This document shows positions 4,517 through 7,198 of a stretch of DNA of 7,327 bases, in pieces. The notes below the pieces were generated by a model. The model saw nothing but the letters and a program-made list of their open reading frames with translations, was not told the DNA's origin and did no database searches. The stretch is from IMG/VR virus record IMGVR_UViG_2778261418_000025, positions 1 through 7,327 of that record; one strand, 5' to 3'. Source of the stretch: a virus. Taxonomy: Duplodnaviria; Heunggongvirae; Uroviricota; Caudoviricetes. Both the position numbers and the translations under genes were made by a program. The stretch's first letter is position 1. Every line of letters begins with the position of its first letter.

Positions 4517-5020
4517 TCACATCAGGCCGGTGGCGTTGGTTGTGACCAGCTCCACCGCCGCAGCCAGAACAGGCGCAGAGTGAATACGGCTTTCAACGGT
4601 ATAAGCCAGCACGGATAAGCTACGGATTGCATCGCGGGCACGATCCAGAATTTGAGTACGGCGGGCGGCAGTCATATAGCCAGTTGATACGGCTTCCCCA
4701 GCAATCGCGCCCACACTGGCTGTGGCACTCAGTGCGCACAACTGCATGTTGCCTTCTGTGGCATTGTTCACCGGCACGGATGGAAGGCAGTTAATCTGAC
4801 CTAACATCCCATCAAGCAAACGCGCATCTTCGGTGTAATCCGTGATAGCCAAAAGCTCATCACAGGTCAGGCGGTGCGGTTGTGCTGGGTTCAGTTTGTT
4901 GCGCAGGATCTGCGGCCTCATACCAACGGCAGCGGCCACATCTTCAAGATTGTGCTCAATTGCAAATGCTCGGCAAGCCGCATCAAAGTGCGCATGTTTA
5001 GAGGTCTGGTAATCAAACAT
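4517..5020 (-). CDS. cII: CII-like transcriptional activator of lysogeny (phage 186 CII family), 167 aa
   Basis: MFDYQTSKHAHFDAACRAFAIEHN...GMRPQILRNKLNPAQPHRLTCDELLAITDYTEDARLLDGMLGQINCLP matches my recollection of 186 CII (MFDFQVSKHPHYDEACRAFA...GMRPQVLRNKLNPEQPH...). ATG at 5020 with GGGAGAGG 6 nt upstream. Confidence 0.8.
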   Translation of the reverse strand: MFDYQTSKHAHFDAACRAFAIEHNLEDVAAAVGMRPQILRNKLNPAQPHRLTCDELLAITDYTEDARLLDGMLGQINCLPSVPVNNATEGNMQLCALSATASVGAIAGEAVSTGYMTAARRTQILDRARDAIRSLSVLAYTVESRIHSAPVLAAAVELVTTNATGLM

Positions 5021-5050
5021 TGTTTGCCTCTCCCGAATCCGTAGGATGGA

Positions 5051-5272
5051 TTACGCGTTAAGCGAAATGTCACATTCGCTTAAAGCCTGAATAGTGAGCG
5101 CGGCCATGTTGACTTCGACCAAGCCTTTCTTCTGCTTACCCTTCGGCTTAATAGGTAATTTCCCGTATTCGATCAGGTTCCTGGCGGTTTCTTTGTTGGT
5201 ACCAGTACGGCGGCAATACTCGTCTAAAGGCAGGTATGGCTCAGGGATGATGATTGTAATGTTCGGACGCAT
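5051..5272 (-). CDS. apl: Apl/Cox-like small DNA-binding protein (excision directionality and lytic-switch regulator), 73 aa from ATG 5272
   Basis: First gene of the leftward operon facing cI, the position of 186 apl / P2 cox. Small and basic (MRPNITIIIPEPYLPLDEYCRRTGTNKETARNLIEYGKLPIKPKGKQKKGLVEV...). ATG 5272 has GGAG 8 nt upstream; the track start at 5305 is a TTG. Assignment is by synteny and size, not recognised sequence. Confidence 0.5.
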   Translation of the reverse strand: MRPNITIIIPEPYLPLDEYCRRTGTNKETARNLIEYGKLPIKPKGKQKKGLVEVNMAALTIQALSECDISLNA

Positions 5273-5343
5273 GAGGCAAACTCCACAAGTTAACCTGTAC
5301 GGCAATACAGGGTTATATAAGGCAACATTCGAAATATGGAGCC

Positions 5344-5372
5344 AGATTAATTCGCGTTTCGAGAAGTGTCAA
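5344..5372 (-). promoter_or_regulatory. Candidate lytic promoter (pR-like) for the apl-cII operon
   Basis: Minus strand: -35 TTGACA (plus 5372..5367), 17-bp spacer, -10 TAATCT (plus 5349..5344), about 65 nt upstream of the apl ATG. The -10 is a weak match, so the exact hexamer is uncertain. Confidence 0.45.
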
Positions 5373-5393
5373 TTTTAATTTCTCGAATCGAGA
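5357..5393. promoter_or_regulatory. Candidate operator: inverted repeats bracketing the -35 element
   Basis: TTCGAGAA (5358-5365) and its exact reverse complement TTCTCGAA (5380-5387) flank the -35, with a second palindrome TCTCGA-a-TCGAGA at 5381-5393. Three TCGAGA-type hexamers lie within 36 bp. Confidence 0.4.
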
Positions 5394-5407
5394 CTTATGG
5401 ATTCGCT

Positions 5408-5989
5408 ATGAGCACATTTAAAATCGACCTAAACGTAGATAGCACACCGATTCTTGACAGGGTGATCGAGGCTTACGGATTTACGCAGAAGTTACAGCTC
5501 GCGGAACATCTGGACATGGCAGCCAGTTCTCTTTCTTCACGCTACAAGCGTGGAGTTTTCCCGGCAGACATTGTCGTGAAATGTGTAGCCGAAACAGGCG
5601 CTAATCTGGAGTGGCTGGCGACAGGACAGGGACGTAAATTTAATGATGATGAATTAGACATACTCAAAATACCGCGCAGCAAGATTGTTGATGGCCAACT
5701 CTATGACGCTGGCACACTTATGCTTGATAAAGTCATCTTCCTGCCTGGTAAGCCCTTACCGCAACAACCGATTTGTGTTCTGGATGGCCTTGTTCAGTAC
5801 ATTGTTGACCAGTCTTATTCTGAAGTTTATGACGATGATTGGTTGGTTGAAGTTGAAGGAAAAACAAGCGTCCGCACTCTTACACGGATTCCGGTACGAA
5901 AAGTCAGAGTTAGCGGTGTTGGTATGGCATTTGATTGCGGAATTGACGACATAAAAATCATAGGCCGCGTTGTTCTGACGATAAAATAA
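5408..5989 (+). CDS. cI: CI-like immunity repressor (phage 186 CI family), 193 aa from ATG 5408
   Basis: MSTFKIDLNVDSTPILDRVIEAYGFTQKLQLAEHLDMAASSLSSRYKRGVFPADIVVKCVAETGANLEWLATGQG matches my recollection of 186 CI (VLDRICEAYGFSQKIQLANHFDIASSSLSNRYTRG...ETGANLQWLLTGEG). C-terminus ...FDCGIDDIKIIGRVV also parallels 186 CI. The track start at 5366 is a GTG with no SD. Confidence 0.85.
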   Translation: MSTFKIDLNVDSTPILDRVIEAYGFTQKLQLAEHLDMAASSLSSRYKRGVFPADIVVKCVAETGANLEWLATGQGRKFNDDELDILKIPRSKIVDGQLYDAGTLMLDKVIFLPGKPLPQQPICVLDGLVQYIVDQSYSEVYDDDWLVEVEGKTSVRTLTRIPVRKVRVSGVGMAFDCGIDDIKIIGRVVLTIK

Positions 5990-5990
5990 A

Positions 5991-7031
5991 ATGAGCGTTC
6001 GTAAACTTCCTACAGGCGAATGGATCGCCGACTTCTACACCGTCAACCGCAGTAATGGCAAGAACGGGAAGCGTATACGTAAAAAATTTGCCACGAAAGG
6101 GGAAGCCCTGGCATTCGAAAACCATACGCTTCAGAAAGTAGACGCAGCTCCGTGGCTGGGTGAAGGGAAGGACAAGCGAACTTTAATAGATCTGATAACA
6201 ATGTGGTATGAACGCCACGGCGTAGCTTTGAGCAATGGCGAAAAGCGTAAAAATGCTATGACCTGGGCGGCGGAATGCATGGGATTCCCGCTGGCCACAG
6301 AATTTAATGCCCAGTTGTTCACAGCCTACCGCGCTAAAAGGCTGGATGGGCATTATGCCCGTACCAACAGAGTATCTAAGGTTTCCCCGAAAACTATGAA
6401 CCTTGAACATGCTTACTTCCTGGCTATGTTCAACGAGCTGAAACGGATTGGTGAATGGTCAGCACCCAACCCACTAGAAAACGTCAGACAGTATCGTACT
6501 GATGAAACCGAAATGGCTTTCCTCACTACCGAAGAAATTGATCGGCTTTTACTGGAATGCAAACGAAGTAAAGTTAAGTACCTAGAATTAGTTGTCAAAA
6601 TCTGCCTTGCTACCGGCGCAAGGTGGAATGAGGCGGCAACGCTGAAAAGCTCCCAGATCGCCGGGGGTAAAGTCACGTTCGTCAAAACCAAAGGGAAGCG
6701 CAACAGAACAATTCCCCTTGATGATGAACTTCTGTCCGAATTACCTGAAACAAAAGGCGCTCTGTTCCCCAAGCCCTGCTACAACGCTTTCCGCTCTGCT
6801 CTGGAACGTGCAGGCATTGAACTCCCCTCCGGCCAGCTTACCCATGTACTGCGCCATACATTTGCCAGCCACTTTATGATGAACGGCGGAAACATTCTGG
6901 TTCTGCAAAAAATTCTCGGCCACGCTGACATCACTATGACAATGCGTTATGCCCATTTCGCCCCAAGCCACCTTGAAGATGCCGTGCGACTTAACCCCTT
7001 AAAATGTCGCAAAAATGTCGCGACAGCTTAG
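5991..7031 (+). CDS. int: Tyrosine site-specific integrase (P2/186 Int family), 346 aa
   Basis: N-terminus MSVRKLPTGEWIADFYTVNRSNGKNGKRIRKKF resembles P2 Int (MAIKKLDDGRYEVDIRPTGRNGKRIRRKF, recalled). Catalytic motifs present: TGARWNEA, HVLRHTFASHF, LGHADITMTMRYAHF. ATG lies 1 nt after the cI stop (TAAaATG). Confidence 0.9.
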   Translation: MSVRKLPTGEWIADFYTVNRSNGKNGKRIRKKFATKGEALAFENHTLQKVDAAPWLGEGKDKRTLIDLITMWYERHGVALSNGEKRKNAMTWAAECMGFPLATEFNAQLFTAYRAKRLDGHYARTNRVSKVSPKTMNLEHAYFLAMFNELKRIGEWSAPNPLENVRQYRTDETEMAFLTTEEIDRLLLECKRSKVKYLELVVKICLATGARWNEAATLKSSQIAGGKVTFVKTKGKRNRTIPLDDELLSELPETKGALFPKPCYNAFRSALERAGIELPSGQLTHVLRHTFASHFMMNGGNILVLQKILGHADITMTMRYAHFAPSHLEDAVRLNPLKCRKNVATA

Positions 7032-7198
7032 AAATACTGCCGAATACTCACAGATATTAACTAACGTAACTTATTGATAACACTGTAAGTTATTGTTTTT
7101 CGTAGATAGTTGATGCTTTATAATATAGCCTGTGCTATATCTGTATGTAATGCAATCATCCCTCAAGGATCGACGGGATTAGCAAGTCAGGAGGTCTT
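7032..7198. other. AT-rich att-proximal region downstream of int (probable prophage end / Int arm-site region); core not identified
   Basis: Immediately 3' of int, where P2-like phages carry attP. Visibly AT-rich with short direct repeats (AATACT at 7033 and 7043; TTATTG at 7071 and 7090) and a TATAAT at 7119-7124. No tRNA-like sequence recognised. Confidence 0.35.

Follow-up and report, generated by a model that had tools for sequence, protein, structure and literature searches.

Phage 186 offers the nearest described counterpart of the genetic switch considered in this work. Its repressor, CI, is known to act on three operators placed about two helical turns apart and spanning 56 bp, with the distal sites FL and FR located about 300 bp away (PMC3675496), and its Apl protein follows a rule according to which 6-bp direct repeats lie 10-11 bp apart, at least three of them being adjacent (PMC7498355). 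A second group of relatives is represented by P2, W-phi and P2 Hy dis, which share with the arrangement proposed for the locus described here an early and a lysogenic promoter (Pe and Pc) placed face to face and 40-60 bp apart, and a protein of the Cox/Apl family as the product of the first lytic gene (PMC7498355). Among heteroimmune relatives of the P2 type the sequence, the position and the spacing of the operators vary (PMC1904268). The C repressor of P2 differs in origin from CI and has half its size (PMC3448106); it binds direct repeats and not palindromes, and P2 has no cII. In place of a small C repressor with direct half-sites we found a 186-type CI of 193 amino acids and palindromic operators.

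The likeness to the OR and OL regions of phage lambda, with their CI and Cro proteins, consists in palindromic operators that overlap the lytic promoter, in a cooperative repressor, a property that is presumed for our locus, and in a CII protein that sets up lysogeny, whereas the C-terminal domain of the repressor and its oligomer are unrelated, and the lambda promoters stand back to back and do not face each other. The lambda operators are 17 bp long and about 23-24 bp apart.

The resemblance to phage 186 goes further. The order of genes is the same, with int and cI diverging from apl, cII and fil; the CI protein is 45% identical to that of 186 (E 2e-49) with both domains present; the Apl-like protein belongs to the same PHROG, and CII to the same Pfam family, with the ATGTTT-N-AAACAT geometry of its site. 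In 186 the spacer of pR (TTTACT, 17 bp, TATATT) is likewise filled by an operator, the middle one, TCTCCCAATTGAGAGA, the candidate for the lysogenic promoter pL takes up the same apl codons, and direct repeats about 10 bp apart are found between both promoters. For the operators of 186 we relied on positions reconstructed from the GenBank annotation together with the sequence, and on that basis the differences are as follows. Instead of TCTCCCAATTGAGAGA and its flanking sites, the operators have here the form TTCTCG-WWW-CGAGAA, and instead of three of them about 20-21 bp (two turns) apart, there are two clear ones separated by 29 bp, with the -35 hexamer in the gap between the operators and not under one of them. 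No distal site of the FL/FR sort and of the same sequence type was found in the window, by which we mean the whole stretch of 7,327 bp that was analysed; about three GGCAAT-type repeats stand against the seven Apl sites of 186, and a covarying inverted repeat at 5294-5311 has no counterpart that we could see in the 186 sequence.

The prophage and its immunity region

The DNA comes from a P2/186-like prophage of E. coli (Peduoviridae), of which it contains the early and immunity region; from 5040 to 6000 it matches prophages in the chromosome of this species at 100% identity, their insertion site being beside mntS. This immunity type is carried by 29 of the 5426 complete E. coli genomes, as counted by matches to 5040-6000; in the phage collection no record matched the switch and cI region at an identity of about 85% or above, and the closest records reached 66-69% over this region. 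From the open reading frames and the annotation, the cI-int operon on the plus strand diverges from an early lytic operon apl-cII-fil on the minus strand, the latter being followed by ORFs of unknown function, dam and a replication endonuclease gene.

The assignment of the cI gene (5408..5989, plus strand) to the 186 CI family was computed by BLASTP, Pfam, comparison with structures and annotation. Its product contains the helix-turn-helix domain PF07022 (Phage_CI_repr, E 6.4e-23) and the C-terminal oligomerisation domain PF16452 (Phage_CI_C, E 3.5e-31), matches the solved 186 CI structures 2FJR (E 1.4e-39) and 2FKD (E 7e-14), and is annotated in the identical E. coli prophages as 'phage repressor protein CI'. 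On the 3' side of cI in the lysogenic operon lies the integrase gene (5991..7031, plus strand; Pfam PF24624 and PF00589, in agreement with annotation). Between the end of int and mntS, at 7060-7100, we observed the direct repeats GTAACTTATTG and GTAAGTTATTG, 18 bp apart, which may be arm-type sites of the integrase at the prophage end.

The first gene of the lytic operon encodes an Apl-like protein of 73 amino acids (5051..5272, minus strand), an excisionase-repressor of the Cox/Apl family. It falls into phrog_575, 'Cox-like excisionase and repressor', with E 1.5e-27, where 186 Apl is placed as well with E 2.8e-9; a direct BLASTP comparison with 186 Apl gave no alignment, the kinship being seen at the level of the PHROG profile only, and a Pfam search with the Apl-like protein gave no match. 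The cII gene (4517..5020, minus strand) was recognised by PF06892 (E 1.8e-46). Its start codon is spanned by a predicted 186-type CII site, ATGTTTA-N13-CAAACAT (4994-5020), and since both the arms and the 13-bp spacing are those of the annotated 186 CII site, a CII-activated promoter of the pE type directed towards cI would be implied, with CII acting at this very place.

The sequence-only reading of this DNA had put a lysis-lysogeny switch between the diverging apl and cI starts, and it set the limits rightly, as the apl-like ATG stands at 5272 on the minus strand and the cI ATG at 5408. By its gene content and by the comparison given above, we identify the region as the cI-apl intergenic lysis-lysogeny switch of a 186-type prophage. 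As such it is an ordinary 186-type switch; what is new is its immunity specificity and an operator spacing wider than that of 186.

The predicted lytic promoter and two palindromes around its -35

The predicted lytic promoter, equivalent to pR of 186, is located on the minus strand and comprises the -35 hexamer TTGACA (5367..5372, tgtcaa on the plus strand) and the -10 hexamer TAATCT (5344..5349), the latter found by comparison of loci. Its layout is thus TTGACA (5372..5367), 17 bp, TAATCT (5349..5344), and the transcript would begin near 5337 on the minus strand, a position derived from spacing only. Seven switch regions of E. coli prophages, of 75-100% identity, were aligned, and then 44 further loci encoding CI relatives were examined. 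TTGACA is invariant in the alignment of the seven, and in 21 of 21 related loci the apl strand reads TTGnnn, then a spacer of 17 bp in which a 15-bp palindrome is flanked by 1 bp on either side, then TAnnnT. The first, second and sixth positions of the -10 hexamer (T, A and T) are kept in all 21 (as TAATCT, TAACCT, TATTCT, TAGAGT and others), and the sequence of the spacer varies. TAATCT agrees with the consensus in three of six positions, and a consensus promoter scan of 4900-6100 reported no promoter; the promoter call therefore rests on comparative evidence. The minus-strand TTGACA had been proposed as the lytic -35 from the letters alone, and its presence at 5367-5372, together with the TTG and the 17-bp distance fixed in 21 loci, bears this proposal out. 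Such a promoter would drive the apl-cII-fil operon.

The palindrome that fills the spacer, TTCGCG-TTT-CGAGAA (5351-5365), is the predicted operator O_L, which is one mismatch off TTCTCGNNNCGAGAA. The predicted operator O_R, TTCTCG-AAT-CGAGAC (5380-5394), is found upstream of the -35 hexamer, with 13 bp between its end and the cI ATG; its centre is 29 bp away from that of O_L, and the -35 stands between them. The O_L/O_R pair outscores all 100 shuffles. Paired 15-bp palindromes with a spacing of 27-30 bp are seen throughout the clade, and in most loci no shuffle out of 100 reaches their score. The hexamer TCGAGA occurs in the 7327-bp window in only three copies, counting both strands, all of them inside 5359-5393, and three or more copies within 40 bp arose in 0 of 5000 dinucleotide-preserving shuffles; this clustering is beyond chance. 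When the 14-mer TTCTCGAATCGAGA was scanned over viral contigs, at least 120 scattered matches were obtained, the pattern being too short to inform.

As a part of the whole switch model, for which our confidence is high, O_L and O_R, with their common form TTCTCG-WWW-CGAGAA, would serve as operators of the prophage's own CI, and CI dimers sitting on both would exclude RNA polymerase from the lytic promoter. That CI binds here we infer from the motifs and from the relatives discussed below, and cooperativity is probable in view of the homology between its C-terminal domain and the wheel-building domain of 186 CI. The 186 wheel consists of seven dimers, and it is the homology of this domain only that would speak for a similar 14-mer wheel wrapping the operator DNA in our prophage.

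These operators give another meaning to the perfect 8-bp inverted repeats that had been noticed on both sides of TTGACA. The repeats are there, TTCGAGAA at 5358-5365 and TTCTCGAA at 5380-5387, perfect and with a gap of 14 bp, and the arms can be extended to 18 nt at 83% complementarity (5348-5365 and 5380-5397); as the repeating unit, though, they give way to two 15-bp palindromes, so that the 8-bp repeat is made up of the right half of O_L and the left half of O_R. In a similar manner, the palindrome TCTCGA-a-TCGAGA that was described as adjacent does exist at 5381-5393, though not beside the 8-bp repeat, as its left half runs over the bases of that repeat's right arm. It might still be supposed that one dimer or a pair of dimers bridges the wide repeat, whose perfect arms flank the -35 symmetrically, that the palindrome is a separate element, and that cI is read from the plus-strand hexamers TTAACC and TATATA, which exist 18 bp apart and would leave an overlap of about 12 bp. 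We regard such an arrangement as unlikely: each 15-mer is a palindrome in itself in the relatives, recurs as a unit and has in several loci a third copy 31-33 bp away, while the left half of O_L, TTCGCG, would be without any role and is yet conserved. Moreover, the plus-strand hexamers are not kept, and it is the position equivalent to 186 pL that appears to be under synonymous-site selection.

The same inverted repeats could, in principle, work mainly as RNA, in the form of an O_L-O_R hairpin in the cI leader which would control translation or stability, protein binding being secondary. The plus strand from 5288 to 5415 does fold at -34 kcal/mol with a z-score of -3.1, O_L being paired with O_R and a hairpin covering the cI AUG. 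All this demands no more than complementarity of O_R to O_L and leaves the internal palindromes unexplained, as well as the exact position of O_L in the 17-bp spacer of 21 loci and the half-site class that tracks CI residues; Rfam contains no matching family, and similar palindrome pairs fold in this way as a by-product. We give this possibility very little weight and keep to O_L and O_R as operators in DNA. It can be added, as an observation on the leader, that the ribosome-binding site of cI is weak (GGA), and that the operator palindromes are the probable cause of the fold of 5288-5415. A further observation concerns a direct repeat, ATCGAGACTTATGGAT (5387-5402) and ATCGAGGCTTACGGAT (5465-5480), identical in 14 of 16 positions, by which the right half of O_R and the cI leader recur inside cI at the IEAYGF codons; by a rough estimate, its chance expectation for the region is about 0.01.

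Several places were considered as additional operators. A third one over the start of the lytic transcript, GGCAAC-ATT-CGAAAT (5321-5335), was rejected, as it has 6 of 12 half-site matches and 200 of 200 shuffles score as high; in the relatives L005, L015, L011, L009 and L033 a class-specific third site is present 29-33 bp from O_L. Concerning distal operators similar to FL and FR, no other 15-mer in the 7.3-kb window came within three mismatches of the operator consensus, in a search that covered the same operator type, the distal sites of 186 including a second sequence type as well. Where 186 has its FR site, the final codons of the apl-like gene contain here an inverted repeat with perfect arms of 9 bp, TTAAGCGAA-N8-TTCGCTTAA (5058-5083), and near it stands the sequence TACGCG-TTA-AGCGAA. 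Neither was retained: the apl-cII junction is conserved regardless of operator class and is, for that reason, not a class-specific CI site, and an arm of the 9-bp repeat is broken in L008.

A candidate lysogenic promoter on the facing strand and the interval between the two predicted starts

For the lysogenic promoter, the best candidate consists of TTGTAA (5254-5259), 17 bp and CAAACT (5277-5282) on the plus strand (5254..5282), with a start that would fall near 5288 (plus). It shares both the apl codons and the spacing with the annotated pL of 186 (TTGCGA, 17 bp, CATGAT), whose -35 lies inside apl codons 5-7. Among the apl codons 5-7 of the window (5254-5262), codons 5 (ATT) and 6 (ACA), TGTAAT on the plus strand, exhibit zero synonymous change in 33 of 33 sequences from 35 distinct relatives, and the neighbouring codons for Arg, Pro and Ile each use three or four codons. 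Such invariant synonymous positions point to a selection acting on the TTGTAA DNA and would fit a -35 hexamer inside the coding sequence, with the reservation that the apl coding sequence and its ribosome-binding site, the latter at the -10, are a partial confounder of the conservation seen at this pL candidate.

A different plus-strand promoter had been put forward from the sequence, TTAACC at 5290-5295 with TATATA at 5314-5319. Both motifs exist, with an 18-bp spacer, and as sigma-70 signals they are not kept: the hexamers of the relatives lose A2 or T6 (TCTATT, TTTATG, GCAATA and others), and the spacer between them is taken up by the separately conserved inverted repeat at 5294-5311. This pair is accordingly not supported as the cI promoter. 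The general idea of promoters standing face to face, as in 186 and P2, would still hold, with the candidate at the 186 pL position (plus) directed against the lytic promoter (minus). Should transcription begin near 5337 on the minus strand and near 5288 on the plus strand, an overlap of about 50 bp is predicted, a value within the 40-60 bp typical for face-to-face promoters in P2-like switches (PMC7498355). Most likely the cI-int operon would be driven by a weak promoter that converges on the lytic one from within the first codons of apl, and, as in 186, repression of the lytic promoter would relieve the interference exerted on the lysogenic one.

In the interval between the two start sites three GGCAAT-type direct repeats follow each other at a distance of 10 bp on the plus strand (5300..5326), namely cGGCAAT at 5300, gGGTTAT at 5310 and aGGCAAC at 5320. 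The 10-bp periodicity stands out better in L037, where GGTCAAT is repeated, and in L026, L029, L017 and L034. Arrays of this type, like the Apl-like protein, are conserved from one immunity class to another, and they agree with the repeat rule known for 186 Apl (PMC7498355). The core TTGCC resembles the repeated motif of the annotated Apl region of 186, its direction relative to cI and apl being opposite. From the comparison of these repeats it is likely that they represent a candidate array for the Apl-like protein, which would probably act on them.

The lytic promoter with O_L and O_R, the convergent pL candidate and the candidate Apl array would compose together a 186-type switch, and as a whole we hold this model with high confidence. 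What the computation supplies are the gene identities, the motifs and their non-random clustering, the fixed layout of the lytic promoter and the covariation of operator class with CI, and from these the binding, the start sites, the cooperativity and the interference are predicted.

The same interval contains the inverted repeat CCTGTA-cggcaa-TACAGG (5294-5311), with covarying arms and a conserved spacer of 6 nt. It has a fixed position in the relatives, and its complementarity has been kept through at least six arm variants. Over 15 distinct relatives, a count which leaves out the lineage of L019 and L025 that fits only with a bulge, 97.8% of cells pair and each of the six pairs has changed on both sides, a result reached by 0 of 500 shuffles. 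We tried to interpret it as a site for CI, CII or Apl and rejected this, as its arm alleles track none of the three proteins: the two main alleles are not sorted by any protein column, and Apl does not differ between them. It may rather be an RNA hairpin than a protein-binding site. G-U pairs favour neither strand as the one that would fold, with a single internal case on each. Under the proposed pL the cI-int mRNA would begin 4-6 nt before the repeat, and on the other strand it is placed 9 nt upstream of the apl ribosome-binding site. A search of Rfam gave no match at E up to 1, and the 73-nt apl leader folds no better than its shuffles (z-score 0.04).

Operator classes, their probable binder and their spacing

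The relatives retain the geometry described above and replace all half-sites together, those of O_R changing along with those of O_L. In the class TTCTCG, with TTCTCG-AAT-CGAGAC in the window and in L003, L004 and L008, residues 50-51 of CI are VF; in the class TTAGAT (TTAGAT-TTA-ATCTAA; L005, L014, L015 and L034) they are GL; in the class TTCGAT/C (TTCGAT-TTA-ATCGAG; L010, L016 and L018) they are IF; and in the class TTYGCA (TTCGCA-TTT-TGCGAA; L007, L012, L013, L019, L021 and L025) they are GF. A class TTTTCA (TTTTCA-ATT-TGAAAA), seen in L033 with GF, was left out of the association test. This dipeptide, which comes after RYKRG, tracks the four main classes, with one exception in L017, where GL accompanies sites of the TGCGCA type, and residues N9, T13 and V50 of CI are unique to the class of the window.

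The comparison of loci indicates that the half-site class follows the N-terminal domain of CI and not the Apl-like protein, and it lends support to what had been proposed from the window, namely that TCGAGA-type repeats are repressor operators at the lytic promoter. It also bears on the thought that the palindromes could be operators of the Apl-like (Cro-like or Cox-like) protein and not of CI, a thought suggested by P2-type and 186-type switches, in which the product of the first lytic gene does bind the switch region (PMC7498355). One and the same Apl-like protein (WP_001247709.1) is encoded by the window and by the heteroimmune L005, where all half-sites differ, and for this reason it is not the class-specific binder; its family binds direct repeats one helical turn apart and not palindromes (PMC7498355), and the separate GGCAAT-type array, conserved across classes, suits it better. 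We consider an Apl operator function of the palindromes highly improbable, and return to CI as their probable binder.

The presumed recognition helix of CI, AASSLSSRY, is identical in three operator classes, from which we infer that specificity is set elsewhere in the protein. It might be suggested that the clade switches operator specificity without a change of the recognition helix, residues 9, 13 and 50-51 being candidate determinants, and that the operators used by its 186-type repressors are separated by about three helical turns and not by two (27-30 bp, the third sites of some relatives lying at 31-33 bp). These two suggestions, taken jointly with the RNA hairpin at 5294-5311, are tentative, and we find them possible though rather doubtful. 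The 29-bp spacing of the window itself amounts to about 2.8 helical turns, which is not a whole number. If a spacing of about three turns is true, it would be a natural example of the wider wheel-DNA geometry raised by Wang et al. 2013, who reportedly proposed it to account for the roughly 180 bp of DNA that are taken up by the CI wheel of 186.

For annotation, the analysis fixes a regulatory map of this prophage immunity type. For specialists in phage 186 it offers a natural experiment, in which at least six operator classes are set on one fixed promoter scaffold and each class is linked to a few CI residues outside the recognition helix. Testable questions are opened by it, regarding the determinant of specificity in this repressor family and the way in which the CI wheel copes with differing operator phasing; the general picture of such switches is unchanged.

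More distant relatives of CI, encoded by the Gilliamella loci L051-L054, are preceded by palindromes of the TTAAGC-TTA-GCTTAA type about 6-70 bp upstream of cI. One of the Gilliamella palindromes abuts TGTCAA, as in the window, and in L051-L053 its partner is 40 bp off. With about 21 bp in 186, about 29 bp here and 40 bp in L051-L053, the comparison suggests that operator spacing may vary across the family in steps of about one helical turn.
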